64,000 nt of DNA from Candidatus Kaiserbacteria bacterium (GTDB lineage Bacteria; Patescibacteriota; Minisyncoccia; Phycocordibacterales; UBA2100). Numbering within the stretch: position 1 is the first letter of the stretch; each line of letters begins with the position of its first letter. The stretch is taken from the NCBI GenBank assembly GCA_028286585.1, contig JAQBRI010000009.1, positions 28,010 through 92,009 on the forward strand. The letters run 5' to 3'. The position numbers and the translations under genes were made by a program. The notes beneath the pieces are model-generated. The model was not told the DNA's origin. It searched no databases and saw only the letters and a program-made list of their open reading frames with translations. Positions 1 to 64,000 of this stretch are shown here, in pieces.

Positions 1-1
1 T

Positions 2-415
2 TCTGCACAAACAACAGCAGTTGTAACAGAGGCAACTACAACTTCGGGTACAATCGTTACACAACCACAAGGCACTTCTACTACTGGTAGTACTCCCCCT
101 ACTCCAACTCCGACCCCTAAGCCAGTTTCAATATATAAGGATGGTAGTTTTACGGGCGACAACGTTGACGCTGTGTACGGTCCAATGCAGGTAACTGCAG
201 TCATTTCGGGTGGCAAACTGACCGCAGTAACCATACTAAAAAAGCCAACTGGCCGAGGTGAGACAGATCAGATCAATGGAGCGGCATTGCCTACGCTTGT
301 TCAAGAATCAATTACTGCACAAAGTGCGAATGTTGACGGAGTTTCTGGCGCAACACAATCATCTGACGGTTTTAAAAGCTCTCTAACTTCTGCTCTTGTA
401 AAGGCAAAAGCATAA
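2..415 (+). CDS. FMN-binding domain protein (5' partial, continues upstream of window); Thr/Pro-rich linker then FMN_bind-type domain with covalent-flavinylation motif
   Basis: Open frame from nt 2 with no stop before 415. C-terminal region has VDGVSGATQSSDGF, matching the (S/T)GAT flavinylation-site motif of FMN_bind (NqrC/RnfG-type) domains. Low-complexity TTTSGT..TPPTPTPTP linker typical of secreted/tethered proteins. Confidence 0.55.
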   Translation, partial: SAQTTAVVTEATTTSGTIVTQPQGTSTTGSTPPTPTPTPKPVSIYKDGSFTGDNVDAVYGPMQVTAVISGGKLTAVTILKKPTGRGETDQINGAALPTLVQESITAQSANVDGVSGATQSSDGFKSSLTSALVKAKA

Positions 416-428
416 TAACTGCAAAAGT

Positions 429-1967
429 TTGAAACAATTTATCACCATGTCTTATATCGATTTCTTTTTAAATAAGATAACGATGTACAGTCTGGTTTTG
501 TACTATCTGCTTACGCTTCTTGGTGTTGCAATAATCGAGAGTTTCTTACATATACTTTCGTATGATCCGCTCTACATTTTACTTTCTGCAATCTTTTTGA
601 GTGCAGTATGCTGGGGAACAAATCGCCTCTGCGCATACATCTGGAAGATTCCGGCAAACGCTGAGTCGTCGATCATCACGGCACTTATTATTGCGCTTAT
701 CGTAACGCCGGTTGCACCAATGATATCGTTTTTTCCGCTTCTTTGGATGGGAATATTGTCACAGGTAAGTAAATACATCCTTACGGTCCGCGGAAAGCAT
801 ATATTTAATCCGGTAGCTGTTGGAGTGGCACTGGTGGGCATATTGCTTGGCTCATACGCCTCATGGTGGGTTGGCGGGACAATCTATCTTATGCCGTTTG
901 TCATTATTGGCGGTCTGCTGATCGTTAGAAAAATTCATCGGTTTGATATGGTGCTGGTCTATATTGTTGTATCAATAGTCGTGGGACTTATTCCAACAAT
1001 TGTCCAAGCAGGTGACATTCCAAACATAGCGCTGCGTCTTGTAGAACACACGCCAATATTCTTTTTTGCCTTTATCATGCTCACTGAGCCGCTCACGACT
1101 CCGCCGCGAAGAGCTGCACGCATGACGTATGCAACAATTATTGCAGCACTTGCAGCACCATGGGTGCACTTTGGAGAGTTTATTTATTTCACTCCGGAAA
1201 CGGCACTCCTTGCCGGTAATGTTTTTTCATATTTTATGAGTTCCCCATTCAAAAAACTGGCAACTCTTACGCAAATCAACCAAATCTCACGCGGTACGTA
1301 CGAGTATGTATTTGATGCGCAGGCAAAATTTCTTCCTGGGCAATATGCAGAATGGACAATTCACACCAAACACGATGACTCACGCGGTAATCGACGATAC
1401 TTTACTATCGCATCCTCACCTGCCGAAGGCGATCTTCGTATTGGCGTCAAAGTCTACGACAAACCCAGCACCTACAAACAGTCGCTGATGCAGCTCAAAG
1501 TTGGTGACACGATTCTTGCTGGCAGTATCGCAGGAGATTTTACAATGCCGCATGATACAACTCAAAAAATAGCTTTCATTGCGGGCGGCATTGGCATCAC
1601 ACCATTTCGAAGTATGGTGCAGCATATGATTGATACGCAGCAAAAACGCGATGCAGTTCTTTTGTATTCAAATCGCTCGGAGGACGAAATTGCCTATTAC
1701 GACTTCTTTCAAAATGCCTCCAATGTCTTGTCTCCTTCGTTTCGAGTGATACATACGCTCACCGACCCAGGAATATCAAACACATGGAATGGTGAAAAAG
1801 GTTTTATCGATGGCGCATTTATCGAGCGCACCGTGCCAGACTACAAAGAAAGAAAGTTTTATATTTCGGGCCCGCAAGGAATGGTCTCGGCGTGTCTTTC
1901 GGCACTTCTTAAGTTAGGAGTACCTCGTACAAATATTCACACCGACTACTTTCCCGGCTTTGCATAA
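429..1967 (+). CDS. Polytopic membrane protein fused to C-terminal ferredoxin-NADP reductase-type FAD/NAD(P)-binding oxidoreductase module
   Basis: N-terminal ~300 aa are hydrophobic with about 7-8 predicted TM segments and several conserved His. The C-terminal half has RYFTIASSP (RxYS FAD-binding motif of the FNR superfamily) and GGIGITPFRSM (GGxGxxP NAD(P)-binding motif). Confidence 0.6.
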   Translation: MKQFITMSYIDFFLNKITMYSLVLYYLLTLLGVAIIESFLHILSYDPLYILLSAIFLSAVCWGTNRLCAYIWKIPANAESSIITALIIALIVTPVAPMISFFPLLWMGILSQVSKYILTVRGKHIFNPVAVGVALVGILLGSYASWWVGGTIYLMPFVIIGGLLIVRKIHRFDMVLVYIVVSIVVGLIPTIVQAGDIPNIALRLVEHTPIFFFAFIMLTEPLTTPPRRAARMTYATIIAALAAPWVHFGEFIYFTPETALLAGNVFSYFMSSPFKKLATLTQINQISRGTYEYVFDAQAKFLPGQYAEWTIHTKHDDSRGNRRYFTIASSPAEGDLRIGVKVYDKPSTYKQSLMQLKVGDTILAGSIAGDFTMPHDTTQKIAFIAGGIGITPFRSMVQHMIDTQQKRDAVLLYSNRSEDEIAYYDFFQNASNVLSPSFRVIHTLTDPGISNTWNGEKGFIDGAFIERTVPDYKERKFYISGPQGMVSACLSALLKLGVPRTNIHTDYFPGFA

Positions 1968-1985: not shown

Positions 1986-2648
1986 TTAGTGAACCATTCC
2001 CGGCAGCATCATGCGCGGTATTACTCCTTGCGGCTGTCCTCCGTTTACACATTCTTGATTGATGAAATCACGAGTGAGCGGGCCCATAAATCCAGTTGGG
2101 GTCGTAATACCAAATTTTGCTTGGAATCGCATCACAGCACTCTTGGTAACAGGACCAAAGTAACCGGTAATGGCGCTTTTTGGAAATACTGGATCATTTT
2201 CAAAAATGATCTGTTGTAATCTTTTTATATCTTCTCCCTGCATTCCGATTCCTATGGCGCGATCAAATTGTTTGCATTGAAAAGCTGCCGGGACAACCGG
2301 AGGCATTGCGTCTGCGACAGCCGGGGTCGAAGTACCTATTCCGCCAAGCGCCATCACTTGCTGAACAAGAGCGGAAAGCTGTTTTTTAAGAATATCAATT
2401 TGAGAAAGGAGAACATTAATCTGCGTCGTTGTTGCGGAAACTGGAGTTGTCGAAGCGGTCGATGTTGCAAGCGTGAGCGTTGTCGAGGCCGTAATAGTGT
2501 CTGTCGCTACTGTTGTCTGTGCCCACGTGTGACCAGGTAGTACTATCGCAGAAATAATCACTAGTAAAGAAAGTGTTGCATGAATTTTGCTTTGCATATA
2601 CGTAAGTATACCTCTTGCCGCGCCATTTGGTATACTGATACATATCAA
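1986..2648 (-). CDS. Secreted Thr-rich protein with coiled segment and C-terminal peptidoglycan-binding (PG_binding_1-like) domain
   Basis: Signal peptide-like N-terminus (MQSKIHATLSLLVIISAIVLPGHTWAQT), TAST-rich low complexity, and C-terminal motif ITGYFGPVTKSAVMRFQAKFGITTPTGFMGPLT typical of PG-binding domain. Confidence 0.5.
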   Translation of the reverse strand: MICISIPNGAARGILTYMQSKIHATLSLLVIISAIVLPGHTWAQTTVATDTITASTTLTLATSTASTTPVSATTTQINVLLSQIDILKKQLSALVQQVMALGGIGTSTPAVADAMPPVVPAAFQCKQFDRAIGIGMQGEDIKRLQQIIFENDPVFPKSAITGYFGPVTKSAVMRFQAKFGITTPTGFMGPLTRDFINQECVNGGQPQGVIPRMMLPGMVH

Positions 2649-27541: not shown

Positions 27542-29224
27542 TTGATTTGCGTTAATTATTGTTATACTTGGAGTATGTTATTGAAAGAAGCTTTGCAAAA
27601 AATAATTCAGGGAGATGTTGTTGATGATCAAGAGTCAATAAAAAAGTACAGTCGTGACACCAGTATCTTCGAGAGAAGTCCAAAAGTTGTCGTGTTTCCA
27701 AAAAAAGCTGCTGATGTTCAGGCAGTTGTTGCGTATGTGCACGAAGCAAAACAGCGTGGAGAAGATATTTCTCTTGCCGGAAGGTCCGCTGGCACCGACA
27801 TGACAGGAGGCCCGCTCACAAAAGATATTGCACTGGTCTTTACAAAATACATGAATACTATTGGTACGATCGGGCTAAATACTGCAACAGCAGAGCCTGG
27901 TGTGTATTATCGCGATTACGAAAAGGCTACGCTTGCGGCAACAGGAATGATTACACCTTCTTACCCTGCCTCGCGCGAACTCTGTGCTATTGGTGGAATG
28001 GTTTCGAACAACTCAGGAGGTGAACTTACACTCAAATATGGCAAAACCAACAAATACGTTCGCTCATTAAATGTAGTACTTTCCGACGGAAGCAAAACTA
28101 CCATCAAGCCCCTCAGTCGCGTTGAGCTGTCCCAGCGGAAAGCACGGCAAGATCTGGAAGGTTCTATATATAGAGAGATCTCGGACCTATTGGATGCAAA
28201 CCGAACAGAAATTGAAGCGGCACGTCCTACAGTGAGCAAAAACTCTGCCGGGTACGCGTTGTGGAATGTTATAGACTCACAAAACGAAACGTTTGACCTC
28301 ACACAGCTTGTTGTAGGTTCACAAGGCACGCTCGCAATGGTAACCGAGGCAACACTTGGTCTTGTTAAAACAGCTGATCATCGGGCAATGTTGATTGTAT
28401 TTTTGTCAGACATTGCACTTTTGCCAGAAATCGTTGGGCGCGTTCTTAAGTACAATCCAGAATCATTTGAGTCCTATGACGACCAAACATTCAAACTTGC
28501 CGTGCGGTTTATTCCACAAATCGTTGGGCATTTTGGCTTACTACAAATGATTAAACTTGGATTCGCATTTATTCCCGAGGCCTGGATGGCGCTTACAGGA
28601 GGAGTGCCCAAGCTCGTTTTGATGGCAGAATTTGCAGAAAGCACTGCAGCGGAAGCTCTTGCAAAAGCAGTTGCTGCTCGCGCTGCACTCCACAACCTAT
28701 CTCTTAAAACCAAGATCGCACGATCGGAAACTGAAACCGCAAAGTATTGGACCATCCGACGAGAAAGCTTTGCACTTTTGCGAAAGAATTTGCACGGACT
28801 GTACGCGGCACCGTTTATTGACGATATTGTGGTACATCCTGCCGACTACCCTACTTTTTTGCCCGAACTTAATCTTATACTCGATCAACATAAACTTCTT
28901 TATACAATTGCGGGGCATATTGGAGATGGAAACTTTCATATCATTCCGCTTATGGATTTATCAAAAGAATCTCAGCGAAATGAAATAATCGAACTGCAGC
29001 CAAAGGTGTACGAACTTGTTGCCAAATACAAAGGCTCTACAACGGGCGAACATAATGACGGTATTATTCGGACTCCTTACCTTAAGTATATGTTTACACC
29101 AGCGATGCTCGATTTGTTTACACAAGTAAAAAAGATATTTGATCCACTTAATATATTTAATCCTGGGAAAAAAGTGGGCGGGACCATCGAGGACATTAAG
29201 TCGTCGATGATAACTCATACATAG
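27542..29224 (+). CDS. FAD-linked oxidase (GlcD/D-lactate dehydrogenase-like FAD-binding PCMH-type oxidoreductase)
   Basis: N-terminal FAD_binding_4-like region (GRSAGTDMTGG), C-terminal FAD-oxidase_C region (GHIGDGNFH, GEHNDG). True start possibly at Met 27575. Confidence 0.7.
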   Translation: MICVNYCYTWSMLLKEALQKIIQGDVVDDQESIKKYSRDTSIFERSPKVVVFPKKAADVQAVVAYVHEAKQRGEDISLAGRSAGTDMTGGPLTKDIALVFTKYMNTIGTIGLNTATAEPGVYYRDYEKATLAATGMITPSYPASRELCAIGGMVSNNSGGELTLKYGKTNKYVRSLNVVLSDGSKTTIKPLSRVELSQRKARQDLEGSIYREISDLLDANRTEIEAARPTVSKNSAGYALWNVIDSQNETFDLTQLVVGSQGTLAMVTEATLGLVKTADHRAMLIVFLSDIALLPEIVGRVLKYNPESFESYDDQTFKLAVRFIPQIVGHFGLLQMIKLGFAFIPEAWMALTGGVPKLVLMAEFAESTAAEALAKAVAARAALHNLSLKTKIARSETETAKYWTIRRESFALLRKNLHGLYAAPFIDDIVVHPADYPTFLPELNLILDQHKLLYTIAGHIGDGNFHIIPLMDLSKESQRNEIIELQPKVYELVAKYKGSTTGEHNDGIIRTPYLKYMFTPAMLDLFTQVKKIFDPLNIFNPGKKVGGTIEDIKSSMITHT

Positions 29225-29286: not shown

Positions 29287-29793
29287 ATGGAAATGATATC
29301 AACATCAACTACTCGGGAAGAACCAATCAATACAGACTTTTTACTGAAAGTTGTACAGCCGGCACTCACCGGCCTTATTGATGGCTCTGTTTCGACGCTT
29401 GCGCCTATTTTTGCCGCAGCATACGCAACACACAACCCGCATACGGCGTTCATTATTGGTGTATCTGCAGGCGTTGGAGCTGGTATTAGTATGGCTTTTG
29501 CAGAAGCACTTTCTGATACAGGCAAAGAAACGGGTCGCGGCCACCCAGTAATTCGCGGTGCAATCGTTGGTGTAATGACACTAATTGGTGGCATCCTGCA
29601 CACGCTTCCCTTTTTGATTCCACATATTACGACCGCGCTCTATGTTGCCTTTGCCGTTGTCGGAGTTGAACTTATCGCAATTGCATACCTCCGTTATCAC
29701 TTCTTTAAACTGAGTTTTTGGTCTTCGGTTGTACAAGTTGTACTAGGAGGAGGATTGGTACTTGCTGCCGGACTTCTTATCGGAAGCGCATAA
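29287..29793 (+). CDS. VIT1/CCC1-family-like membrane protein
   Basis: ALTGLIDGSVSTLAPIFAAAYA resembles the VIT-family AxLGxNDGxVSTxSLxxGVAxA motif; about 5 TM segments. Confidence 0.5.
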   Translation: MEMISTSTTREEPINTDFLLKVVQPALTGLIDGSVSTLAPIFAAAYATHNPHTAFIIGVSAGVGAGISMAFAEALSDTGKETGRGHPVIRGAIVGVMTLIGGILHTLPFLIPHITTALYVAFAVVGVELIAIAYLRYHFFKLSFWSSVVQVVLGGGLVLAAGLLIGSA

Positions 29794-33809: not shown

Positions 33810-34454
33810 TTATTGTGTTTTGAAGGATGTTGGCCATGTCACTTGGACATTGCCGTTTGCGTCTCTTGTGTAGATCACATAATAGTATGTGGTATTTGAG
33901 GCCAAGTTCGAAATGGTAACGTCTTGTACGTTTTTGAGTGATGTGTCGGTGCTTGCTGCGCTGCCGTTGACGGTAACATCATTTGAGTTCTCGGTCATAA
34001 CGAGAGGTGAAGTACTGTAATAAACGGTTCCCTGCGCTGGCTTGTTGGTCTGCCAATGAATAATCGCATATCCCTGTCCTGTAGTGCTTACAGTAGCATT
34101 AGAGATAATAGGAGCACTTGTGATATTGGTAGTGCCTCCCATCTGCGTGTTAATTAGGCCGAGGGTAAGCGGGCCAACCCGACCTACTGCAGGAAGTCCA
34201 TTTCGCGTTTGAAAACGAGAAACTGCCGAAGCCGTTAAAGATCCAAAATAACCGGTAACCAACCCTTGTGGGTAAAGTGACGAATCTGCTGCGAGAAATG
34301 TCTGGAGTGAAGAAACATCACTACCACTCATTCCAACATCCAGCTGGCGAGTGAGCGTATCAGCATATGCATACGACGATAGAGCAACTATCATTGCTAC
34401 TCCGAACAAGGTCGAGAGTATTGTGGTTCGTTGAGAAATACTGTTTGTTTTCAT
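33810..34454 (-). CDS. Secreted protein with peptidoglycan-binding domain and C-terminal FN3-like beta domain
   Basis: Signal peptide, LVTGYFGSLTASAVSRFQTRNGLPAVG (PG_binding_1-like), C-terminal region with FN3-like strand pattern (TVYYSTS...NTTYYYVIYTRD). Confidence 0.5.
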   Translation of the reverse strand: MKTNSISQRTTILSTLFGVAMIVALSSYAYADTLTRQLDVGMSGSDVSSLQTFLAADSSLYPQGLVTGYFGSLTASAVSRFQTRNGLPAVGRVGPLTLGLINTQMGGTTNITSAPIISNATVSTTGQGYAIIHWQTNKPAQGTVYYSTSPLVMTENSNDVTVNGSAASTDTSLKNVQDVTISNLASNTTYYYVIYTRDANGNVQVTWPTSFKTQ

Positions 34455-38992: not shown

Positions 38993-41900
38993 TTATTTCT
39001 TCCAATGATACAGCAATATTGAGAAGTCGACTGAATCTACCTTTCCGTCGTGATTGAGGTCGACTTTATTATTTTTAAAAGGTGGCTTCGTCTTCCAATA
39101 TGCGAGAAGTATTGAGAAATCGATTCCATTCACTTTTCCATCTCCGTTGATATCGCCAATCACTTCAGTTGTAGCTGCTGGGGTAGCCACAGGTGGAGAA
39201 TTATCTCCTCCGCCTCCCCCACCTCCTCCACCTCCGCCACCGCCACCTCCATTACCTGGGTTTTGTACGGGAGCAGCAATTGCAGTAAATGACTGACTTG
39301 CACTTGATGATGCTGATCCATATTGTACTGCTACATGGAACCAATACGTTCCAATAACGGGAACAGTTGAAGAAAGTGTTGTATCAAAGTTCGCACCAGG
39401 CTGAATCAGTTTTGCTGCAGTTGAACTAAAAATATCATCACCACCTCCACAAGAATTGGTTGCAGAGTCGGTAACACACCACGTGTATTGATATTCGTAT
39501 GCTATAGAACCTTCGTTTGTTATACGCACTGCTGTGGCAATGCTTGGTACCGTCAATCCACTAAAACTCTGGATCAGAACTTGTGCTGGCGCTCCCGGTG
39601 TTGCACTCACAGGAATTGTTGTCGTGCCTCGTCCAACAAGATTTTTTGCTGATATACGGAAATCATATGAATTATTGTTGGATAGACTAGTTACCATGGT
39701 TGTTGGTGTCGTACTAATACCGTCAGAAAATATAGACCATGTTCCGCCCGAAGAAAGTTTGTATTCAACTACGTAATCAGTCACAGGTGAACCACCGTTT
39801 GATATTGGCGCCGACCATGAAAGGTTGATACTGCTGTCTTGTACAATTGCGGCGAGGTTTATTGGGGCACCGGGCACACTTGCTGGCGTCGCAGCATTAC
39901 TTGTACCGGAGCTGGTACTCGTGCCAACTGCGTTTGTTGCAGTGACAGTAAATGTGTATGTTGTTCCGTTTGTGAGGCCTTGTATAGTAGCTGAAGTTCC
40001 ATTTGTTGTAGTACTAAATACTCCACCATTTGAAGTGACGGTATAGCTTGTTATAGGAGATCCTCCATTAAAACCGGGCGCAGACCACGTAAGATTTACA
40101 CTACTGTCTGCAATTGCTGCAGCAAGATTTGTTGGCGCGTCAGGAACTGTAGCTGGGGTGACCGAATTCGTTGCGGCTGATGAAATACTTGTTCCAATTG
40201 CGTTGGTTGCCGTCACTGTAAACGTGTAGGCTGTTCCGTTTGTTAAACCAGTTACCGTTATTGGTGAACTTCCGCCAGTTGCGGTGAAGTTGCCGATATT
40301 TGAAGTAACGGTATAAGACGTAATTGCAGAGCCACCGGTAAATGATGGTGGGCTAAATGTAATAGTCGCAGTACCGTCACCGCCAACTGCCGCTACGCTC
40401 GTTGGTGCACTTGGCCCACCTGCAGGTACAACCGAATTACTTGTTCCAGAACTAGTACTTGTTCCAACATTGTTTGTTGCAGTTACTGTAAAGGTGTACG
40501 TTGTTCCATTCACGAGTCCAGTAATAGTGATCGGTGAACTTCCACCTGTTGCAGTAAATCCTCCTGTATTTGATGACACGGTGTAGTTAGTTATTGCAGC
40601 ACCGCCGTTACTAACGGGCGGTGTAAAGGAAACAGTTGCTTGGCCGTTTCCAGCAACTGCAGAAATCGAAGTGGGTGCATCAGGTACTGTGGCAGGAGTA
40701 ACGGAGTTACTTGTACCCGATGAAGTACTCGTTCCAATACTATTTGTTGCAGTGACAGTAAATGTGTATGTCGTGCCATTTGTGAGACCAGTAATTGTAA
40801 TTGGTGAAGAGCCACCTGTTGCCGTAAATCCTCCTGTATTTGATGACACGGTATAGTTTGTTATTGCAGCGCCGCCGTTACTTACAGGCGGAGTAAATGT
40901 AATTGTTGCTTGGCCGTTACCACCAACGGCAGAAATACCAGTCGGAGAATTAGGAACAGTTCCTGGTATTACTGAATTACTTGCGGATGATGCGGTACTT
41001 GTTCCTGCAGCATTCGTAGCAGTGACTGTAAATGTGTACGTAGTTCCGTTGGTAAGACCGGTCACAGTGATCGGAGAAGAACCACCTGTTGCGGTAAGGC
41101 CGCCACTACTTGATGTGACAGTGTAACTCGTAACGGCAGCTCCTCCATTATTTACTGGTGGAGTAAATGTAATTGTTGCCTGACCATTACCGCTAACTGC
41201 GGTCACGCTTGTCGGCGCGTTTGGCGTCGTCGCGGGAACAACGGTGTTACTTGTGCCCGATGGCGTACTGGTTCCAACTGCATTTGTGGCAGTCACAGTA
41301 AATGTGTAGGTTGTTCCATTTGTAAGACCGGTAATTGTAATTGGTGAAGATCCGCCGCTCGCGGTGAAGCCGCCGGTGTTTGATGACACGGTGTAGTTAG
41401 TTATTGCAGAACCGTTGTTACTTCCCGGTGTAAAGGAAACCGTAGCTTGACCATTACCGCTTACTGCCGTGACAGCAGTAGGTGCATTAGGAACAGTAAC
41501 AGGAGTAACTGAGTTACTTGCGGACGACGCAGTACTGGTTCCAACATTGTTTGATGCTGTTACGGTAAATGTGTAGGTTGTACCGTTAGTAAGGCCAGTA
41601 ATTGTAATTGGGGAGCCGCCGCCTGTTGCAGTAAAGCCGCCGGTGTTTGATGACACGGTGTAGTTAGTTATTGCAGATCCCCCGTTACTGACTGGCGGAG
41701 TAAATGTGATTGTTGCTTGGCCGTTTCCAGCAACTGCAGAAACGCTTGTTGGGGCACCCGGTGCAGTCGCAGGTGTCACAGAATTGCTTAGTGTCGAGGA
41801 GGTACTTGTGCCAACGCCATTAGTTGCAGTAACGGTAAATGTGTATGCGGTGCCATTGGTAAGACCGGTCACAGTGATTGGTGAGCCACTTCCGCTTGCT

Positions 41901-44900
41901 GTAAACCCGCCTGAGTTTGATGTCACCGTGTACGTTGTGATTGCAGCACCACCGTTACTAACAGGCGGAGTAAATGTAATTGTTGCTTGGCCGTTACCTG
42001 CTGTAGCGACTGCTCCCGTAGGTGCATTTGGAACAGTTGCTGGTGTCACAGAATTGCTTAGTGTCGAGGAGGTACTTGTGCCAACGCCATTAGTTGCAGT
42101 AACGGTAAATGTGTATGCGGTGCCATTGGTAAGACCGGTCACAGTAAGTGGAGAACTGATACCAGTGACATTAAAGCCGCCAATGTTTGATGTGACCGTG
42201 TAGTTTGTAATCGCAGAACCGTTGTTACTTCCTGGTGTAAAGGTAATTGTTGCCTGACCATTTCCACCAACTGCAGTAACGCTTGTTGGAGCACTCGGGA
42301 CACCTGCCGGCGTGATTGAATTGCTTATTCCCGAAGATGTACTTGTTCCTGCAGAATTATTTGCAGTTACAGTAAACGCATAGACTACTCCGTTTGAGAG
42401 ACCGGTCACTGTGATTGGTGAAGAACCACCTGTTGCAGTAAAGCCTCCAACATTTGAAGTAACAGTGTACGTTGTGATTGCAGCACCGCCATTACTTACG
42501 GGTGGAGTAAACGAAATTGTTGCCTGCGTATCCCCTCGCACTGCTGTCACACTTGTCGGAGCATCTGGAATTGTTGCTGGAGTGACCGATGCGCTCGCAC
42601 TCGAACTAGCACTCGTTCCAACTGAGTTAGTAGCAGTTACTGTAAATGTATATGCCGTTCCGTTTGTTAAACCAGTTACCGTGATTGGTGAAGATCCGCC
42701 GGTTGCAGTAAAGCCACCTGTGTTTGAAGACACTGTATATGTTGTGATTGCAGCGCCACCGTTACTTACAGGCGGAGTAAAGGTTACGGTCACTTCTCCA
42801 TTGCCTCTCGTGACGGTTCCTATTGTCGGCGCGTTCGGAGTAGTAGCAGGAACAACCGTGTTACTCGTTGCCGATGCGGTACTTGTTCCTGCTGAGTTAG
42901 TTCCCGTTACGGTAAAGGTGTACGTTGTTCCATTTGTGAGACCAGTAATTGTAATTGGCGAAGATCCGCCGGTTGCAGTAAAGCCACCTGTGTTTGATGA
43001 GACCGTGTACGTTGTGATTGCAGATCCCCCATTACTTACAGGTGGTGTAAAGGAAACAGTTGCTTGACCATTTCCAGCGACTGCAGAAACGCTAGTTGGG
43101 GCACCCGGTGCAGTCGCCGGAGTTATTGTATTACTGGTGCCAGAATTTGTACTCGTACCGATTGCGTTTGTTTCGGTGACAGTAAATGTGTATGCCGTTC
43201 CGTTTGTTAAACCTGTTACAGTTATTGGTGAAGAGCCACCAGTTGCAGTGAAGCCGCCGGTGTTTGATGAGACTGTATAGATCGAAATACTTGAACCATT
43301 GTTATTGCCAGGTGTAAACGAAATTGTTGCTTGGCCATTTCCGGCAACTGCGGTTACGCTTGTTGGAGCACTCGGGACTCCCGCAGGTGTGATAGCATTA
43401 CTCGTACCAGAGGCGGTACTTGTTCCCGCCGAGTTAGTAGCAGTTACTGTAAAAGTATAAATCGTACCGTTGGTAAGACCGGTTATTGTAATCGGTGAAG
43501 ATCCACCAGTTGCTGTGAGGCCTCCCACATTTGATGAGACTGTGTATGTTGTTACAGCAGAGCCGCCGTTATTCACTGGCGGAGTAAACGATATGGTAGC
43601 CTGCGTGTCGCCGCGAACTGCGCTAACACTTGTCGGCGCGTCCGGTACTGTAGCTGGTGTCACCGAACTACTAGCACTCGAACTTGCGCTCGTTCCAACC
43701 GCATTTGTTGCGGTTACTGTAAACGTGTACGCTGTGCCATTCGTTAGACCTATTAGTGTTATTGGTGAAGAGCCGCCAGATGTTGTAAAGCCGCCTGTGT
43801 TTGATGAGACGGTGTAAAGAGTAATTGGTGAACCGCCTGTATTTCCTGGTGTAAAAGAAATGGTTACCTGCCCATTACCCGCCGTCCCTATTACACTAGT
43901 AGGTGCATCAGGAATTGTCGCCGGTGTCGCAGAATTTGTTGCGTTCGAGGCCGTACTCGTACCAACTGAGTTAGTAGCAGTTACTGTAAATGTGTATGCC
44001 GTTCCGTTTGTTAAACCTGTTACAGTTATTGGTGAACTACCACCTGTTGCAGTGAATCCTCCTGTGTTTGATGTAACGGTGTAGCCAGTTATTGCAGAAC
44101 CTCCGTTACTTACGGGTGGTGTAAATGTAATTGTTGCCTGAGTGTTACCACGTGTCGCGGTTCCTATAGTTGGTGCGTCTGGCACAGTTGCAGGAACCAC
44201 ACTATTACTTGTACTTGATGGAGTACTCGTTCCCAACGCACTACTTGCCGTCACTGTAAACGTGTACGTTGTTCCGTTCACAAGTCCAGTTATTGTAATT
44301 GGTGAAGAGCCACCTGTTGCAGTGAATCCCCCAGTGTTTGATGAGACCGTGTACGTTGTGATTGCAGATCCCCCATTACTTACTGGTGGTGTAAACGTAA
44401 TTGTTGCTTGGCCATTACCGCCGGTTGCAGTGACACTAGTTGGGGCACCCGGTGCAGTCGCCGGTATCACACTGTTACTAGCAATTGACGCAGTGCTTGT
44501 ACCAACGGCGTTCGTTGCCGTAACTGTAAACGAATAGGAAATTCCATTGGTAAGGCCGGTCACAACAATTGGTGAGCCACTTCCCGTTCCAGTAAAGCCG
44601 CCAACGTTTGAAGTAACCGTGTACGTTGTGATAGCAGAGCCGCCGTTATTCACTGGCGGAGTAAACGATACAGTAGCTTGAGTATCACCGCGAACTGCAC
44701 TCACGCCGGTTGGCGCACCTGGCACTGTTGCAGGAACAACACTATTACTCGTTCCCGAAGGAGAGCTTGTACCAGCGGAATTAGTAGCAGTTACCGTGAA
44801 TGTGTACGTTGTGCCATTAACAAGTCCGGTAATCGTAATCGGAGAACTTCCGCCGGTTGCGGTAAAACCGCCGGTGTTTGAAGACACTGTATATGTTGTG

Positions 44901-47900
44901 ATTGCAGTGCCACCATTACTGACTGGAGGAGTAAATGTGATTGTTGCTTGGCCGTTACCACGTGTTGCCGTTCCTATAGTTGGTGCACCAGGCGCTGTAG
45001 CTGGTGTTACTGCATTACTAGTACCCGAAGAAATACTGGTACCTGACGCGTTCGTTGCCGTTACTGTAAATGTGTACGTTGTTCCATTTGTGAGACCAGT
45101 AATTGTGATTGGTGAGCTGCCGCCGGTTGCGGTAAAACCGCCGGTGTTTGATGAGACAGTATAATTTGTAATTGGTGAGCCTCCCGAATTTACTGGAGGT
45201 GCAAAAGTAATAGTTGCTTGTCCATTTCCGGGAACTGCCGTAACACTCGTCGGCGCATTTGGTACCGTTTGATAATTTAAATATGCATAAGTAGTTCCCG
45301 GCGTAATCGCCCAAACTGGCGAAACAAAATCCCAGTTTGTATATGTCGCCTGGGTCTTCAATGCAGTAGTAGTTGTACCTGTCATTCCTGCCGGATCGGC
45401 ACCATTACCAACACCATTACTTTTGCCAGATGTAACGTTGTCCCAATAATCAGATACGTAAGATCCACCGATTGGATTTCCAACAATGCCTCCCACATAT
45501 TGAAGTGCCGCAGCACCAGTTGCTCCTGAGGCGCCCGCGGCGCCTCCTGTTCCTCCTGTTCCTGCAGCGCCTCCTGTTCCACCTGTTGCACCACTCGTTT
45601 TGGTGCCTGTCGGCACACCTGTTGCGTATGTATTTGTAATCACCGCATTATTACTTCCAAACAATCCTCCAGCATACGCGTTTCCGCCAGCACCTCCGGC
45701 GCCGCCTGTTGCACCCGTACCATTTACACCAGCCACTCCGCCTCCTGCTGCTCCGGCGTTTCCGCCAGCACCTCCTATCGCACCGGTTCCCGGAGTTCCG
45801 GCCGTAATAGTGACGTTTCCACGTGCGTAAGTATTTGTTATAACTCCCGTGTTCTGACCAACAAGTCCTCCGCCTGTCACATCACCTCCAACACCTCCTG
45901 TGCCGCCAGTTCCTCCAGTGGCTCCTGCACCACCGTTTCCAGATCCACCCGATCCACCAACGCCTCCGTTTCCGCCCTTTCCGCCGACCGCACCATTGCC
46001 TCCGTTGCCTCCTGTTATGCTTACGTTTCCGGATGAATAACTCGTATTAAAAGTTCCGGTCGCAAGATCTGCTCCCATAAGCCCGCCCGCAAATGATGCG
46101 CCGCCGGCACCACCATTTCCTCCTGCTACAGAAGCACCACCTGCGCCACCGGCAAGTGTTCCGCCTGCGCCACCTGTACTAACGGTACCCGAGAGTCCTG
46201 CGGAGGCACCAGCGCCACCAACAAGTGAGACATTTCCTGATGACCACGAAGAGAGCACAGTACTTCCCGAAGCGTTTTGTCCGACAAGTCCGCCAGCATA
46301 TGCTGCGCCTCCGGCGCCTCCCGCCGCAGTTGCACCCATTGCTCCGCCTATACCACCTGCGCCGGTTGGACCACCCGCGCCGCCGTTTCCTCCGACACCA
46401 CCTGCACCACCTACGCCGCCAGCAGAGCCGTTTACGTTCACGGCTCCAGTTCCATATGAAGTAGAAATCGTTCCGCCATTATTTTGTCCAACAAAACCAC
46501 CGCCATACGCGATACCTCCAACACCTCCTGCAGTACGTGCGCCAGCAATGCCGCCAGTTCCGCCAGTTCCCGCAACAATTCCTGCGCCGCCCGCCGCACC
46601 ATTTCCTCCCAATCCGCCAACGCCTCCTGCGCCGCCGGTTACCGTAACAGAACTGTTTGCATATGAATCTTTAATCGTTCGCCCAGTATTGTTATATCCA
46701 TTAAATCCACCCGCGTATGCAATACCTCCAACACCAGCCGCGCCCGCTGAACCGCCCGCGCCGCCTGTCGCACCATTTGCAGCCGTTGCGATTCCGCCGG
46801 CAACTCCAGCGCCGCCAGTTCCTCCAACACCTCCTGCACCAGCCGAACCCAAAACTGTTGTTGACGCGTAGGACCCCGAAAGCACGGTTCCATCATTAAA
46901 GCCAATGAGTCCGCCCGTATAAAGAACTCCTCCAGAAACTGCTGCGCCGCCTGCACCACCTGCACCACCAACTCCGGCTGCTCCAGGTAATCCTCCTATG
47001 CCTCCTGTACCACCGGACCCGCCGACTCCACTCGTGCCAGTAACAGATGCGCCAATTGCATAACTTGTTGCAATAGTATTAAGCGCATTCACGTTGTTAC
47101 CAATGAGTCCGCCCGAGTAGGACGCGCCACCAATTCCTCCAGCACCTCCTGTTCCGCCAGTGCCTCCAACATGTGCACTTGTTCCGAGACTTCCATCGCC
47201 GCCCGCGCCGCCTGTCGCACCAGTTGCACCGTTTTTAGCAATCGAAACAACACTACCTAATGCAAACGAATTTAAAACAACTCCGATTGCGGTATTGTGT
47301 GCAATGAGTCCTCCAACATATGCTGCACCTCCTGCTCCTCCTGCTCCTCCTGCTCCACCCGAGGCGGCAGTACTACCCGATACACTTCCAGAAGCACCTC
47401 CCGCAGCTCCCGCTCCCGGTGTTCCTGCAGTGCCACTCGTTGAAGTAGCATTTCCTGTCGCGTATGAATTTCCTTGAATCGTACCAAAGTTAAAAGCGAC
47501 AAGTCCGCCGGCATATGCTGCACCGCCCACGCCGGTAGCGCCACCCAAGCCGCCGGTTCCTCCGATTGATCCAGATCCACCGGCGCCACCAATCACTCCC
47601 GCCGCGCCATTACCGCTGGTGCCGCCATTTGCAATAACATTGTCAGTTGAATAACTTGAAGTAATGATGAGGTTGTTACTCGCGGTAGCACTGGTGCGCC
47701 CTACCAACCCACCGGCATATGCAGCACCGCCAGCTCCCGACGTACCTCCACCGCCCGTTGCAGCACCAACTGCCGCGGATCCGCTGGTGCCAGAGGCTCC
47801 TGCGCTTCCTCCATTTCCTCCTGTGCCACTTGTCGAGGTTACAATATTGCCTGTTGCATATGAAGTAAGAACGTTATTGGCCCCGGTTGTCGCACCAGTA

Positions 47901-50900
47901 AATCCAGCTAATCCTCCTGCGTTACCGTCGCCTCCTGCTCCGCCAATTCCGCCGGCACCTCCCGCGCCGCCAACAGAACTTGCTGCACCATTTGCACCAA
48001 CTCCTCCTGTGTTTCCAGTGCTTCCAATACCACCCGTTGCGGAAACTGCTCCCGTTGCATAACTATTCACTATATCGCTTTGTCCCCCTGTTGTAACAAA
48101 ATTCAATCCAATCAAGCCGCCGGCAAAACCCGAACCGCCGGCTGCAGCAAGCACAGCGCCACCGCCAGCACCTCCTGCAACTGTTGTTCTAGATGCGCCA
48201 CCATTTCCGGACGTTCCTGCTGTTCCCGCATTTCCGCCGGTTGAAGAAGCATTCCCAGTAGCATAATCAAAACTATAATTTACGATTCCAGAAGTAACAT
48301 TAGTGTACCCAACCAAACCACCTGCGTTACCATCGCCTCCGATACCTGCCGAACCGCCAAGTGCTCCTGCCGAACCTGCATGAGTTACGGTTCCGGTTGA
48401 ACCATCACCTCCCACACCACCTGCTCCACCAGTGCCTCCAGTTCCGCCGGTGACCGTAGCATTTCCCGTTGCATATGAATTAAGTATTTGTAATGTTTGT
48501 GTAGTTGCATTTATACGTCCAACGAGTCCTCCGCCATACGTCACACCACCTGCACCACCGGCACCTCCTGCACCACCTGCAGCTGCAATACCACTTGCAA
48601 TTGTGCTACCACTCGTGCCTCCTGCTCCTCCCACTCCTCCCGTTCCTCCAGTACCTCCCGTGACTGAAAAAGAAATCGAGGAGTACGAATTATTCTGAAT
48701 TGTTCCAAGGTTATCACCAACAAGTCCACCATAACTACGAGCGCTTCCGGCGCCTCCTGCACCTCCTGCAGTTCCTGTACCTCCGGCAAAGGCGCCTACT
48801 CCAGTTCCGCCCGCACCGCCAATTCCGCCGGTTCCTGCCGTTTGCTCAGTTCCCGAAATCGCGATCGTATCAGAATACGATGTTGTAATAATTCCGGCAG
48901 CACTATTAAATCCCGCAAGACCTCCAACAAATGTACCGCCGCCCGCGCCTCCTACGCCTCCAACTCCGCCGGCACCTCCTGCACTTCCAGCTGCAAGTCC
49001 CGAGCCTCCAGCACCGCCATTTGCACCATTTCCCATTGCACCGCCCGCGACACTAATATTTCCTTTTCCAGATCCGGCATCAACACTTGCATACGACGCA
49101 ATAATTTCGGATGCGTTATTTCCTACAAGTCCACCGACATGAATCAAACTGGACGCGCCACCGGCTCCGCCTGCTGATCCCGCTGCACCACCACCCGCCG
49201 CTCCGCTTCTTCCAGCGGTTCCGTTTTGTCCTGCACCCCCAGTCACATTGAGTGCAGTCTTTGAATACGAAGTCTGAATAACTCCGATCGAATATCCCAC
49301 AAGACCACCGACATATACGCCGCCGCCAGCACCTCCTGCACCACCTGCGCCTGCAATACCATAAAGCGCTGTTCCTGTTCCAACTCCGCCCGCGCCGCCC
49401 TGCGCGCTTGCTCCGCCGGCACTCCCTGTCACGGTAACGGTTCCCGTTTGTGAGTATGAATTAGTAATTGTTCCAACAAAGTTTTGTCCAACGAGTCCGC
49501 CGGCCTGCAGTGCACCAGCAACGAGTCCGCCGCCAGCACCTCCGGCACCGCCCACTCCGCCAGTACCACCTAAGTGGTTGGTCGCGAGTGTTCCATCGCC
49601 GCCCGCACCACCGACACCTCCTGCACCACCTGACCCACCAGTTGCATTCACATCGGATGTTGCATATGAATTATTTATAATTCCAGCAACGGTATTGTTT
49701 CTTCCTACCAAACCGCCTACGTTAACTGCTCCGGCCACACCGCCAGAAGCACCTGCGCCGCCCGCTGCTGCTGTGCCAGCTGAAATATTTCCCGAAGCTC
49801 CTGCAGTACCTCCAGCGCCCGCGGCACCACCGGCACCAGAAAAAGCACTTACTGCTCCTGTTGTATGAAAACTGCTTTGAATTGTGGTTGGACTGTCTCC
49901 CACCAAACCTCCCGTATAGTTAACTCCTCCACCTCCACCGACTGCTCCATTACCACCAGCACCCCCAAGAGACGCGGACCCTCCTGCACCACCGGCACCA
50001 CCAGAGCCCGATGCTCCACCTGCTCCCGATGTTCCTCGGATAATTCCTGTTGAACTTGATGTCGCAATATTTCCTCCAGAAGCTGCTGCTGCTGCGACAA
50101 GGCCACCTGCGTAGGATGCGCCGCCCAATCCAGCAGCTCCACCAGTTGCACCCGCTCCTCCCGCCGAGGCTGTACCGCCAGCACCTCCGGCGCCGCCATT
50201 TCCTGCAGCACCGCCCACTCCGGCAAGGACAGTCACGTTACCTGATGTAAATGAATTTCCAATAAAAACGTTTGTGTTTGTAAATCCAAGGAGTCCACCT
50301 CCGTTTGCAAATCCTCCTGCGCCTCCAATTCCTCCTACTGCTCCCGCGCCGCCCGTTATAGAATTTGTTACCCCGCTTCCGCCCGCGCCACCTACTGCAC
50401 CTGCACCGCCCGCTCCGCCCGTTACTGTTATGTTTCCTGAAGCGCGAGAATTATTTATCGACTGTCCAGTTCCCGAGTTAAATCCTTCGAGTCCGCCTGC
50501 GTATGCACCAAAGTTAAGTGCTCCGCCGCCTCCGCCCGCGCCACCAGTTCCACCGACTGCTCCATTTGTACCGGCAACTGCCGCACCGCCCGCACCACCG
50601 CTGCCTTCTGTAATAGTGACATCGTCGGATGATGACAATGATTCAATAATCACATCTGCAAGCGAATTGAGTCCGATAGCTCCGCCACTATAGATTGGTC
50701 CGGCAACACCACCCGCGCCTCCGGTTCCACCAGTTCCATTTCTTCCACTTCCCGATCCGCCCGCGCCGCCAGTTCCGCCAGTTCCCCCAACACCACCCGA
50801 ACCGCCAAGAGTTACAGTAATTGTTCCTCCACTACTTGAAGAGGAGGCAATATTTCCATTACCTTGTCCTGCGAGACCGCCAATATATACCACGCCACCT

Positions 50901-62635: not shown

Positions 62636-62637
62636 AT

Positions 62638-63003
62638 CTACAACTGTGTATACTTTGTGTGCCGCCCTTTGGCCTTTGCTACCGGGTATTTCTCACCATT
62701 TTTCTTCATCTTTTTTTCAAGTGCATCAGAAATATCAATTTTAAGATCATTACACATTAGCAGTACCCAATAGAATACATCGGCTAACTCTTCGGCAACA
62801 TCTTCTTTATTTGTCTTTATGTGTGCCTCCATTTCTTCTTTATTTTTCCATTGAAAATGTTCCATGACTTCGGCAGCCTCTAAAACCAAGGAAATGGCTG
62901 TGTCTTTTGGGTTATGAAATTGTTTCCAATCACGAGCGTCACGAAATGAGACCACGAGCTTTTTGAGCTCCGCAAGGCTCTTTTGGGTCTTTTTTGTCGT
63001 CAT
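62638..63003 (-). CDS. MazG-like nucleoside triphosphate pyrophosphohydrolase
   Basis: LEAAEVMEHFQW and EELADVFYWVLLMCNDLKIDISDALEKKMKKNGEKYP are the EExxE...ExxD all-alpha NTP-PPase (MazG) motifs; 121 aa. Confidence 0.7.
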   Translation of the reverse strand: MTTKKTQKSLAELKKLVVSFRDARDWKQFHNPKDTAISLVLEAAEVMEHFQWKNKEEMEAHIKTNKEDVAEELADVFYWVLLMCNDLKIDISDALEKKMKKNGEKYPVAKAKGRHTKYTQL

Positions 63004-63076
63004 AGATAGTCAAATAATACTCTTTTTATGAGATAAAGCTAAAGTGTATTCATAATGATGACTGACCCTATTTCTC

Positions 63077-64000
63077 CTAGTATTTCGTACCGATATATAT
63101 ACCGTAGGTACCATAGCATTGATATCCGCCCTTGCCTTTGTGGGGGCGCATGGACGAGTCATGATTATTTCGAGTGAAGCGTTTACCACAAACACCGCAC
63201 TTAAAGATATACTTTAACCCTCCAGAAAAACGTTGCCCTTGTGGACGAAGTGTACGGACAGTCTGCATACGGGGCGCTCTCGGGGCTTTCTCCGGTTTGT
63301 TTGGATCAAACAAGTATCGATCTTCCGGTATTTCACCCGACTTCGACAGTTCAATCGGATACTGCGGTATAAATTTCACATCTGTATTTTCCAGCGTTTC
63401 CACCTTGTCGGAAATGAAGCTACGCATCCCAGGTGGATTGGTGCCTCCACTTTTGTTGTACGCAAAAAAATACTCACGTTCGCTCCCGTCCCTCTTCTGC
63501 ATGTACTTGAGCGAGTACGGCTCCACAGTGCGGTCCGCACCGTTATAGCGGAAGCGCAGAAGCGTTTGGGTACGTGCTGCGTGCATAATAGTAGCGCGAT
63601 GATCAGCATTGAAATAGGCGAATTGGGCGAAGCCGCTGTCAGAATATCCTGCGAACAGCAGTTCTAGATCTGTGGTAAATGCGATGATTGCATCCTCGAC
63701 ACCAATTAAGAATTCCTTGGCACACACCACAGACTTTGCCCATTCCTGCCGATAGTAGTCAAAACCGGTTTTCAACAGGATGCTTTTGAGTACAAAAGGA
63801 TTTCGAGAGAAGATTGTTTTTTGTATTAGCGTGCGCATCACTTCTCCCCTGTCGAGGCTGCCACCCAACTTCTGAATGGAGTAAGCATAGTCAAAAAGAT
63901 CTGGCGCGTGCTGGCGCTGCATCATACATTTCAGCTTTGTGGCGATAATCTCTTCGAGCTTCATACAGCGAATAGTGCATGCCACCTCTTCCGCATCCGA
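63077..64000 (-). CDS. AbiEii/DUF1814-like nucleotidyltransferase-family protein (3' portion; ORF continues upstream beyond window end) with C-terminal Cys/His zinc-ribbon-like tail
   Basis: No stop between the listed Met (63985) and window end (SDAEE precedes it in frame). KLEEIIATKLKCMMQRQHAPDLFDYAYS resembles the conserved ExxxAEKLxAxxxR..xRDLYDL motif of AbiEii-type NTases. C-terminal CGVCGKRFTRNNHDSSMRPH. Confidence 0.35.
   Translation of the reverse strand, partial: SDAEEVACTIRCMKLEEIIATKLKCMMQRQHAPDLFDYAYSIQKLGGSLDRGEVMRTLIQKTIFSRNPFVLKSILLKTGFDYYRQEWAKSVVCAKEFLIGVEDAIIAFTTDLELLFAGYSDSGFAQFAYFNADHRATIMHAARTQTLLRFRYNGADRTVEPYSLKYMQKRDGSEREYFFAYNKSGGTNPPGMRSFISDKVETLENTDVKFIPQYPIELSKSGEIPEDRYLFDPNKPEKAPRAPRMQTVRTLRPQGQRFSGGLKYIFKCGVCGKRFTRNNHDSSMRPHKGKGGYQCYGTYGIYIGTKY

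Follow-up and report, generated by a model that had tools for sequence, protein, structure and literature searches.

The two genes at the start of the 64,000-nucleotide stretch of Candidatus Kaiserbacteria DNA analysed here (the window) probably form a minimal "NQR/RNF-like" transmembrane electron-transfer complex. The earlier note had seen in them a resemblance to the logic of NQR and RNF, which is borne out by a profile match of the membrane domain to RnfD (E 2.6e-5), by an RnfD/NqrB fold and by an NqrC/RnfG-like partner protein. The pair is a member of the NQR/RNF-like system; the finding is therefore correct but not new, because such pairs have already been described from genome surveys, and the same architecture and mechanism were proposed under that name by Meheust et al. 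2021 in eLife (PMC8238504). In that survey, Actinobacteria and the candidate phyla radiation were the main groups with the system, which tempers the earlier view of an unusual capability for a minimal cell. The contribution of the present analysis is an ApbE-less variant, one more member of a computationally described system, along with several new details, namely the loss of the cassette ApbE in this lineage, ApbEs without leader sequences and an RnfD-like domain that escapes Pfam.

The proposed mechanism draws on homology and structure models. What the sequences show directly are the domain identities, the fold, the motifs, the topology signals and a conserved gene pairing, whereas the cofactor content, the direction of electron flow, flavinylation in this organism and the acceptor belong to the proposal. 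Cytoplasmic NAD(P)H would reduce FAD in the C-terminal FNR module of the fusion protein, and electrons would then cross the membrane via the RnfD/NqrB-like domain, probably with a non-covalent flavin as in NqrB and RnfD, to reach FMN covalently bound to Thr140 of the small anchored FMN-binding subunit on the outer face, from which they would be handed to an extracytosolic acceptor. In effect, this would be the RnfC-RnfD-RnfG (or NqrF-NqrB-NqrC) half of the RNF/NQR pump, with the FNR domain standing in for the Fe-S/NADH subunit and the covalent FMN of the partner standing in for that of RnfD. For the NQR/RNF-like system the flow has been proposed to be one-way, from NAD(P)H to the outside (PMC8238504, PMC10979944). 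The features of the two genes are as follows, in window coordinates.

1..415, + strand: gene 1, FMN-binding subunit (NqrC/RnfG-like), 3' part; PF04205, E 4.9e-9.
92..124, + strand: Thr/Pro-rich linker TPPTPTPTPKP between anchor and FMN domain; homologues have low-complexity linkers at the same position.
335..355, + strand: putative ApbE flavinylation motif D-G-V-S-G-A-T; the motif D[ILV][IV]SGAT is conserved across the family.
447..1967, + strand: gene 2, 506-aa fusion of an RnfD/NqrB-like membrane domain and an FNR-type reductase; from the open reading frame, the homologue alignment and an AF2 model.
447..1250, + strand: RnfD/NqrB-fold membrane domain, aa 1-268, 10 helical segments, predicted N-in/C-in; from profile, Foldseek and charge pattern.
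795..812, + strand: K-H-x-F-N-P motif, aa 117-122, in an inward-facing loop; from invariance in alignments.
1080..1106, + strand: L-T-E-P-L-T-T-P-P motif, aa 212-220; from invariant columns and alignment to the 'TDPVTSP' segment of 8ahx_D.
1251..1964, + strand: FNR-type module, aa 269-506, an FAD-binding beta-barrel and then an NAD(P)H-binding Rossmann domain; from PF00175, PF00970, NCBIfam and Foldseek.
1392..1406, + strand: FAD-binding motif R-R-Y-F-T (RxYS/T type), followed by IASS; R316, R317, F319 and T320 invariant.
1584..1604, + strand: NAD(P)H-binding motif G-G-I-G-I-T-P (GGxGxxP); G380, G381, G383, T385 and P386 invariant.
1947..1964, + strand: C-terminal Y-F-P-G-F-A; the penultimate Phe505 nearly invariant.

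Gene 1 is cut by the start of the window, which holds its last 137 residues (nt 2-412) and its stop codon (413-415), while its first 65 nt lie upstream and encode the anchor. The missing 22 codons, MKKIIAAVVVIGGLVVYIIISR, were taken from Logan contig L001, which is identical to the window across a 5,204-nt overlap and carries the complete gene at L001:9454-9933; they encode an N-terminal anchor or signal, assigned from hydropathy and charge. The full-length product of 159 aa comprises this anchor, the Thr/Pro linker and the FMN_bind domain, and it combines the two characteristics of ApbE substrates, the FMN_bind fold (PF04205) and the motif Dxx(S/T)GA(T/S). The TP-rich linker and the FMN_bind SGAT motif reported in the earlier note were thus both recovered, the latter at nt 344-355 within DGVSGAT, and the predicted FMN-bearing residue is Thr140 of the full-length product (codon 353-355). 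The motif is of the same type as that of NqrC. When the FMN_bind family profile was searched against the PDB, the closest solved relative was the FMN-binding domain 8p2a (E 1.5e-22), with the SGAT aligned. Armadillo-repeat proteins that appeared in the same search were rejected as repeat-summing artefacts, no single stretch being significant.

Gene 2 begins 31 nt downstream of the gene 1 stop, and both genes lie on the + strand where they had been placed earlier. Its start is most likely ATG 447, the alternatives being TTG 429 and ATG 483, from which the NCBI record derives a product of 494 aa; ATG 447 is preferred because D5, L8, N9 and T12, which are conserved among homologues, precede the NCBI start. 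The AF2 model of the product has a mean pLDDT of 94.2 and a pTM of 0.89, and homologue matches are far beyond chance, with E 5.8e-225 for the best non-self homologue. The description of this gene as a membrane domain fused to an FNR-type FAD/NAD module was confirmed on both sides of the fusion.

In the FNR-type module, PF00175 matches residues 377-483 (E 3.1e-19) and PF00970 matches weakly, NCBIfam returns the reductase parts of flavohaemoprotein, PaaE and NqrF, and Foldseek returns the NqrF FAD domain, cytochrome b5 reductase and flavohaemoglobin at E about 1e-17. As regards the two motifs previously read as RxYS and GGxGxxP, GGIGITP stands, whereas a literal RxYS is absent, its place being taken by R-Y-F-T within RRYFTIASS, which aligns with the plant FNR motif RLYSIASS. 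By analogy with the near-C-terminal aromatic residue of FNRs, Phe505 probably stacks on FAD. The same role is presumably played in NqrF by Phe406, a residue for which the PDB lists only an F406A variant, and NqrF F406A entries occur among the fold matches of the module.

The homology of the membrane domain with RnfD could be recognised only with a family profile and a structure model, because Pfam and NCBIfam gave no meaningful match for this domain alone. PF03116 did not match the gene 2 product even at E <= 10, and most homologues carry weak or faint matches to it. The profile of the membrane-domain family retrieved RnfD 8ahx_D from the PDB at the E value given above, and when the domain was modelled apart from the FNR module, the top 15 Foldseek matches in the PDB were all RnfD/NqrB chains (TMq 0.58-0.71); with the full-length model, only FNR-type proteins appeared among the 50 matches listed. 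Profile and model together identify the domain as an RnfD/NqrB homologue, and not as an unrelated transporter, a ferric reductase or a PepSY haem domain, families that had also been considered for it. It has 10 helical segments in place of the roughly eight counted earlier.

Within this domain, K117, H118, F120, N121 and P122 are invariant in a 30-sequence alignment; in a set of 113 sequences this still holds for H118, N121 and P122, with K117 and F120 nearly invariant. The K-H-x-F-N-P motif resembles the RnfD motif 'NPFNPA'. The stretch from FNP to the GG helix is only about 30 residues long, where the loop of RnfD has about 100, and the domain appears to lack the external loop of roughly 70 residues that bears the flavinylated Thr in RnfD. 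The flavinylation motif [ST]G[AS][ST] is absent from the membrane domain and from 112 of the 113 homologues, confirming the report of Huang et al. 2024 (PMC10979944) that the flavinylation Thr of the RnfD-like subunit itself is not conserved. The earlier note had mentioned several conserved His; among the five in the domain only H118 is invariant and H241 nearly so, and nothing points to haem. The di-haem membrane families PF01794, PF03929 and PF16357 have no Pfam match in the gene 2 product. A haem conduit was rejected on the basis of the single invariant His, the lack of a ferric-reductase, MsrQ or PepSY match and the RnfD fold.

The topology, one of the checks suggested in the earlier note, was assessed from charge distribution and from the partner proteins; none of those checks refuted the reading in the note. 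In 113 homologues, about 11.7 Lys+Arg fall in the inward-facing stretches (N-terminus, even-numbered loops and the linker to the FNR module) and about 0.5 in the five alternate loops, which argues for an N-in/C-in arrangement with the FNR module in the cytoplasm. All of the 58 partner FMN_bind proteins examined have an N-terminal anchor or signal, with a mean K+R of 2.2 ahead of the helix and 1.1 behind it; a clearly cleavable Sec-type signal is present in some (at loci L065, L073 and L038). Because of the positive-inside pattern and these anchors and signals, an arrangement with the FNR module cytoplasmic and the FMN domain exported, so that the two flavin modules lie on opposite sides of the membrane, is supported. 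In the AlphaFold-multimer model of Huang et al. 2024 (PMC10979944), the FMN domain docks on the outer face and the flavinylation site of the partner adjoins the flavin pocket of the RnfD-like subunit.

The pairing of the two genes is conserved. Of 77 evaluable loci from many phyla, 58 have the FMN_bind gene immediately before the fusion gene, and in 53 of these 58 ApbE lies between, so that the usual cassette is FMN_bind-ApbE-RnfD::FNR. Four unrelated loci (L002, L039, L047 and L087) have FMN_bind without a cassette ApbE, and at a further 11 the fusion gene has neither as a neighbour. No ApbE separates the two genes here or in L002, a 68%-identical relative, and two other Kaiserbacteria have it inside the same cassette; this lineage has lost the gene from the cassette. 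Neither tblastn nor an HMM of 120 ApbEs (--max; positive control L004, E 6.6e-145) found an ApbE in the window plus 9.5 kb upstream, a total of 73.5 kb that represents only a fraction of the genome, and both gave only chance-level matches in L001 and L002. Since no ApbE was found in these 73.5 kb, covalent flavinylation in this organism is still only a prediction, with the target Thr motif retained.

The membrane-domain profile retrieves 607 clusters (50% identity, E <= 1e-30), compared with the 127 first reported by Meheust et al. 2021 (PMC8238504), and the family is very common in the candidate phyla radiation and occurs also in Mesorhizobium, Dictyobacter, Ktedonospora and Agreia. Clustering of the neighbours across 84 loci revealed no conserved fourth gene hinting at the acceptor; the associations are only patchy, with ABC ATPases at 22 loci, two-component systems at 15-19, an uncharacterised family of about 441 aa at 12, a probable CopA-like heavy-metal ATPase at 5 and VIT1 at 4. 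No other RNF/NQR subunit was found in window ORFs of at least 150 aa, among the upstream called genes or conserved near homologues, which is why the pair was not taken for what is left of a complete RNF/NQR operon.

Several other readings of the pair need to be weighed. It is improbable that the unit is an NAD(P)H:quinone (or other membrane-acceptor) reductase, in which electrons would pass from FAD through the RnfD-like flavin to a quinone at the cytoplasmic face, much as in the final steps of NqrB, with FMN_bind as a side branch or structural partner. The NqrB fold of the membrane domain would suit such a reaction, since the riboflavin and ubiquinone sites of Na+-NQR lie in NqrB, as would homologues in quinone-containing bacteria such as Mesorhizobium and Ktedonobacteria; however, candidate phyla radiation bacteria, where the family is so common, generally lack quinone synthesis, and such a reductase would not explain why an exported, flavinylatable partner and ApbE are so tightly conserved. 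A solute channel or transporter with a urea/ammonium-transporter-like fold, regulated by the attached redox-sensing FNR domain, is scarcely credible: urea transporters are the next-best structural matches (E about 0.08-0.5), but only after the RnfD/NqrB chains, which take all of the top 15 places with much better scores, and both the specific alignment of sequence motifs with RnfD and the linkage to FMN_bind and ApbE point to redox chemistry.

Two further readings start from ApbE. If the FMN_bind domain were cytoplasmic, the whole unit would be a membrane-tethered cytoplasmic NAD(P)H-flavin oxidoreductase; this is quite improbable, although it would fit the absence of a signal peptide or lipobox from all cassette ApbEs, and cytoplasmic ApbE-dependent flavoproteins are known, such as the fumarate reductase of Klebsiella (PMC12052999). 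The more positive N-flank of the partner helix, the plainly cleavable signals at three loci, Thr/Pro or Gly/Ser linkers typical of surface proteins, the periplasmic location of NqrC and RnfG and the published complex model argue against it. A decaying remnant, in which the pair became non-functional or non-flavinylated after the loss of the cassette ApbE, is very improbable. Such decay would match the missing ApbE in the window and in L002, set against the majority of loci that keep it, yet both genes are intact, with the invariant residues of the family and DGVSGAT retained, and the two ApbE-less relatives keep every motif despite being only 68% identical, which points to purifying selection. 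Moreover, the loci with FMN_bind but no cassette ApbE, together with those with neither, suggest that the parts can be dispersed in the genome. The transmembrane electron-transfer complex is the reading retained.

Cassette ApbEs lack a signal peptide or lipobox in every phylum although their substrate is exported, an awkward fit that raises the question of where and when the exported subunit is flavinylated.

If the mechanism of the retained reading holds, bacteria of the candidate phyla radiation, usually described as fermenters without electron-transport chains, would possess a two-protein device that moves NAD(P)H electrons across the membrane without quinones, haem or Fe-S clusters, bearing on their redox balance, metal acquisition and host interaction. 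A bolder proposal, conceivable but unlikely, is that the pair is the main outlet for reducing power in the cell, a two-protein, quinone-free NAD(P)H:extracellular-acceptor oxidoreductase that regenerates NAD(P)+ in a fermentative cell without a respiratory chain; the acceptor would be iron, copper, oxygen, humic compounds or a host surface, and the FMN either would be attached prior to export, in the cytoplasm, by a leaderless ApbE whose gene lies elsewhere, or would be non-covalent. If true, no simpler device for extracellular electron transfer would be known, and flavoproteins would have a new route of maturation. A literature search found no experimental or biochemical study of any member of the NQR/RNF-like family, which is open to experiment owing to its members in the cultivable Mesorhizobium, Dictyobacter, Ktedonospora and Agreia.

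Among known systems, the NQR/RNF-like system itself shares with this pair a membrane-anchored NqrC/RnfG-like FMN_bind protein and an NqrB/RnfD-like domain fused to a C-terminal PF00175, as well as a flavinylation-associated cluster with FMN_bind or ApbE within five genes and a signal or lipidation site on one of the products. The differences are that the cassette ApbE, usual in the family though not required by the authors' definition, is missing here, and that PF03116, which belongs to their operational definition, misses this membrane domain.

The RNF complex (PDB 8ahx, 9eri, 7zc6) has in common with the pair the RnfD fold and motifs, an external FMN_bind protein as the counterpart of RnfG and a cytoplasmic NAD(H) module on the inner face. 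In contrast to RNF, the pair lacks RnfA, RnfE, RnfB and the Fe-S subunit RnfC, with an FNR-type FAD domain fused in place, and the covalent-FMN motif of RnfD is absent, its loop apparently deleted; given that there is no second membrane path, a semicircular flow is not expected, and nothing indicates ion pumping. In comparison with Na+-NQR (PDB 8a1t, 7xk3), the FNR module is similar to the FAD/NADH domain of NqrF and the membrane domain to NqrB, whereas the 2Fe-2S ferredoxin domain and membrane helix of NqrF are lacking, as are NqrA, NqrD and NqrE, and no quinone is expected in this organism. The FNR module does not appear to be specifically NqrF-derived, because flavohaemoprotein and PaaE reductases score at least as well.

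The flavin-based extracellular electron transfer of Listeria (Ndh2, EetA/B, PplA, FmnB) likewise leads from cytoplasmic NADH to a surface FMN_bind protein flavinylated by ApbE, with no outer membrane. Listeria, however, relies on a type II NADH dehydrogenase together with a dedicated quinone pool where a single RnfD-like/FNR fusion without quinone would serve here, and its ApbE (FmnB) is an exported lipoprotein, whereas the cassette ApbEs of relatives are leaderless. The MsrQ-like and PepSY-like domains fused to PF00175 (Meheust et al. 2021) and the NOX/ferric-reductase family also place a cytoplasmic FNR-type NAD(P)H module on a membrane conduit, often next to FMN_bind and ApbE. They are di-haem cytochromes with conserved His ligands, whereas gene 2 has an RnfD fold with one invariant His, and for this reason its membrane conduit is presumably flavin-based.

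The window belongs to a metagenome-assembled genome of Candidatus Kaiserbacteria, in the candidate phyla radiation. Its nucleotides 1-1967, where the earlier note had proposed a transmembrane flavin electron-transfer unit, contain two co-directional genes. The first is cut by the window start, so the note described a truncated gene; the 22 missing codons come from the Logan contig L001, which overlaps the window by 5,204 nt without a mismatch, and the complete product comprises 159 aa. Its assignment as an FMN_bind protein is confirmed, and the TP-rich linker and flavinylation motif (SGAT) claimed for it are both present:

N-terminus of the product (from L001): MKK followed by 18 hydrophobic residues
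nt 92-124 (+): Thr-rich and Thr/Pro-rich linker, TPPTPTPTPKP
FMN_bind domain of about 90 aa (PF04205, E 4.9e-9)
nt 335-355 (+): D-G-V-S-G-A-T, the canonical ApbE target motif, within the FMN_bind domain

A search with the FMN_bind family profile hits a solved FMN-binding domain, 8p2a, at E 1.5e-22, and SGAT is aligned in this match.

An NCBI protein matches the product of the second gene (447-1967, +) at 100% identity. The most likely start of this gene is ATG 447, predicting 506 aa: NCBI begins the protein at 483, which leaves out the conserved residues D5, L8, N9 and T12, and the 494-aa record is probably 12 codons short (window 447-482). The C-terminal 240 residues constitute the expected FNR-type FAD/NAD(P) module (PF00175, E 3e-19; PF00970 weak), with NCBIfam matches to the reductase parts of flavohaemoprotein, PaaE and NqrF, and structural matches to the NqrF FAD domain, cytochrome b5 reductase and flavohaemoglobin (E ~1e-17). 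Three motifs, RRYFT(IASS), GGIGITP and YFPGFA with its near-C-terminal Phe, show complete or almost complete conservation among 113 homologues; GGIGITP fits the GGxGxxP originally claimed, and the FAD motif, given as RxYS, actually reads RYFT.

Searched alone, the N-terminal 268 residues match no Pfam or NCBIfam family, and PF03116 (NQR2_RnfD_RnfE) matches weakly in most homologues. Comparison with NqrB/RnfD, as the earlier note had suggested, is informative: a 19-sequence membrane-domain profile matches RnfD of Azotobacter vinelandii (8ahx_D) with E 2.6e-5, aligning GG..L.VRK and FFFAF.MLTEPLTTPP of the family with GG.WL..R and FFI.TDPVTSP of RnfD, respectively. AlphaFold2 predicts both the full-length product (pLDDT 94) and the membrane domain alone (pLDDT 84) with confidence, and the best 15 PDB matches of the membrane-domain model consist entirely of RnfD and NqrB chains (TMq 0.58-0.71). 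Ten helical segments are found rather than about eight, and one invariant His rather than several. The motif [ST]G[AS][ST], sought in the membrane domain, is absent from the gene 2 product and from 112 of the 113 homologues. In RnfD, FNP is followed by an external loop of about 100 residues bearing the flavinylated Thr, whereas only about 30 residues separate FNP from the next conserved helix in the gene 2 membrane domain. Loss of the flavinylation site in an RnfD-like subunit has likewise been reported (Huang et al. 2024, PMC10979944, section 8).

The distribution of Lys and Arg in this domain is a textbook positive-inside pattern, from which an N-in/C-in product with a cytoplasmic FNR module is predicted. 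Mean Lys+Arg per segment across the 113 homologues:

N-terminus: 1.3
Loop 2: 0.4
Loop 4: 2.0
Loop 6: 3.4
Loop 8: 2.4
Post-membrane linker: 2.2
Loops 1, 3, 5, 7 and 9: 0.10, 0.22, 0.05, 0.11 and 0.03

All 58 FMN_bind partners examined (the proteins encoded beside the fusion gene) carry a basic N-terminus followed by a hydrophobic helix, with a mean K+R of 2.2 ahead of the helix versus 1.1 in the 15 residues behind it, and several partners from other phyla (MAGs labelled Spirochaetota, Methylocapsa) have plainly cleavable Sec-type signals; these features place the FMN domain, by prediction, outside. In a few partners the N-terminus contains RR and resembles a Tat signal (IRRFFLSG in L034, FRRTAAAM in L065).

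No ApbE flavin transferase is encoded in the 64-kb window or the 9.5 kb upstream (positive control L004, E 6.6e-145), and no RNF/NQR subunit, Tat component or ApbE occurs among the other window ORFs of at least 150 aa. Because the cassette still includes ApbE in two other Kaiserbacteria and the target motif is intact in the gene 1 product and in the 68%-identical relative L002, an ApbE would be expected elsewhere in this genome. Cassette ApbEs are all of about 245-255 aa and begin at the first core strand (MKxTRxLMGMPITVE), where the mature E. coli lipoprotein begins, and lack about 50 internal residues of E. coli ApbE; in no phylum does the stop-to-stop ORF leave room for a signal peptide or lipobox. 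Examples:

L004:9254-9997, also L008, L024, L027 and L065: compact, leaderless ApbE of about 247 aa

This suggests cytoplasmic flavinylation before export, or else unconventional export of ApbE; the literature search found no discussion of a leaderless transferase with an exported substrate.

Among clusters at 50% identity, the membrane-domain profile matched 607 with E <= 1e-30; with the threshold relaxed to E <= 1e-10 the number rose to 1,660. Species-representative genomes yielded at least 451 loci across many candidate phyla radiation lineages, Chloroflexota (Dictyobacter, Ktedonospora), Alphaproteobacteria (Mesorhizobium, Kaistia), Spirochaetota and Actinobacteria. Arrangements upstream of the fusion gene were scored with purpose-built HMMs in the 77 loci with enough upstream sequence:

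FMN_bind - ApbE - RnfD::FNR: 53 of 77
FMN_bind directly upstream, without ApbE: 5 of 77
ApbE present, FMN_bind missed by the HMM: 8 of 77 (FMN_bind probably too divergent for detection)
Neither FMN_bind nor ApbE: 11 of 77

The five ApbE-less loci are the Kaiserbacteria of the window, L002, L039, L047 and L087. No additional gene was conserved throughout the neighbourhoods; two-component systems and ABC ATPases occur patchily, as do VIT1, a CopA-like, likely heavy-metal ATPase and an uncharacterised family whose members have about 441 aa. A gene for a multicopper oxidase lies directly upstream of the cassette in one relative among the Kaiserbacteria (L088:3525-4634, GCA_021413775.1), and in two others (L089, L090) the cassette is preceded by an ECF sigma factor and a protein of about 240 aa (possible anti-sigma), hinting at metal or envelope-stress links. 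Elsewhere the window contains:

1986-2648 (-), convergent with the fusion gene, and 33810-34454 (-): secreted-looking PG_binding_1 proteins with Thr-rich linkers; similar genes lie near L002 and L004
6485-13195: folate/thymidylate block with DHFR, cytidylyltransferase-like protein, deaminase, SHMT, CofE-like F420-0:gamma-glutamyl ligase family protein (PF01996) and a thymidylate synthase with an N-terminal extension of about 100 aa
20889-27359 (-): type IV pilus block with two pilin-like proteins bearing the N-terminal methylation motif, LVIVD-repeat protein, T2SSF platform protein and T2SSE ATPase
27542-29224 (+): FAD-linked oxidase, adjoining the next gene
29287-29793 (+): VIT1-family ferrous-iron transporter homologue (PF01988, E 7e-12), 27 kb from the gene pair
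38993-56818 (-): giant ORF of 5,941 aa with a hydrophobic N-terminus, then Gly/Ala-rich 'YAGGLVG...N' repeats (33-38% Gly) spanning about 3,000 aa, and a Thr/Ser-rich C-terminal half; the last 1,000 aa contain a C-terminal dockerin as well as at least nine fibronectin type III domains. The ORF accounts for an increase in GC to 0.55-0.58 and a GC skew of -0.3, both at 44-56 kb
60629-63985 (-): possible defence island, with a Schlafen-group-3-like helicase fused to an S24 peptidase (668 aa; a similar protein lies near the cassette in L089) and an adjoining AbiEii-type nucleotidyltransferase toxin fragment

What the analysis shows for the gene pair is its domains, fold and motifs, the signals of topology and the conserved linkage of the genes. 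That the membrane domain is a transporter is very improbable; urea transporters come next in its PDB ranking, far behind RnfD/NqrB. A cytoplasmic FMN domain is also improbable, the charge pattern and the partners' N-terminal signals or anchors agreeing on flavin domains at opposite sides of the membrane, as the earlier note had supposed. There is at most a slight chance that the pair is a decaying remnant, and an inward-facing quinone reductase is unlikely too. Most likely, NAD(P)H would reduce the FAD of the FNR module inside, electrons would pass to a non-covalent flavin within the RnfD-like domain and then, outside, to FMN bound covalently to Thr140 in the anchored subunit, and finally to an acceptor; here we infer the cofactors, flow direction, flavinylation in this Kaiserbacteria and the acceptor.

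The same architecture, a PF03116-PF00175 fusion in a flavinylation-associated cluster, defines the "NQR/RNF-like systems" of Meheust et al. 2021 (PMC8238504, section 13), for whom VIT1 was the one partner linked to some of these clusters; the literature search found no experimental characterisation of such a system. Huang et al. 2024 (PMC10979944) modelled the Ktedonobacter complex with direct docking between the RnfD-like subunit and its NqrC/RnfG-like partner, the partner's flavinylation site adjoining the flavin pocket of the RnfD-like subunit. The earlier note, whose flavin electron-transfer reading is supported, had in effect found this system anew from the sequence alone, and the gene pair is a further member of an already known, computationally defined NQR/RNF-like system, represented here by an ApbE-less variant of the cassette.
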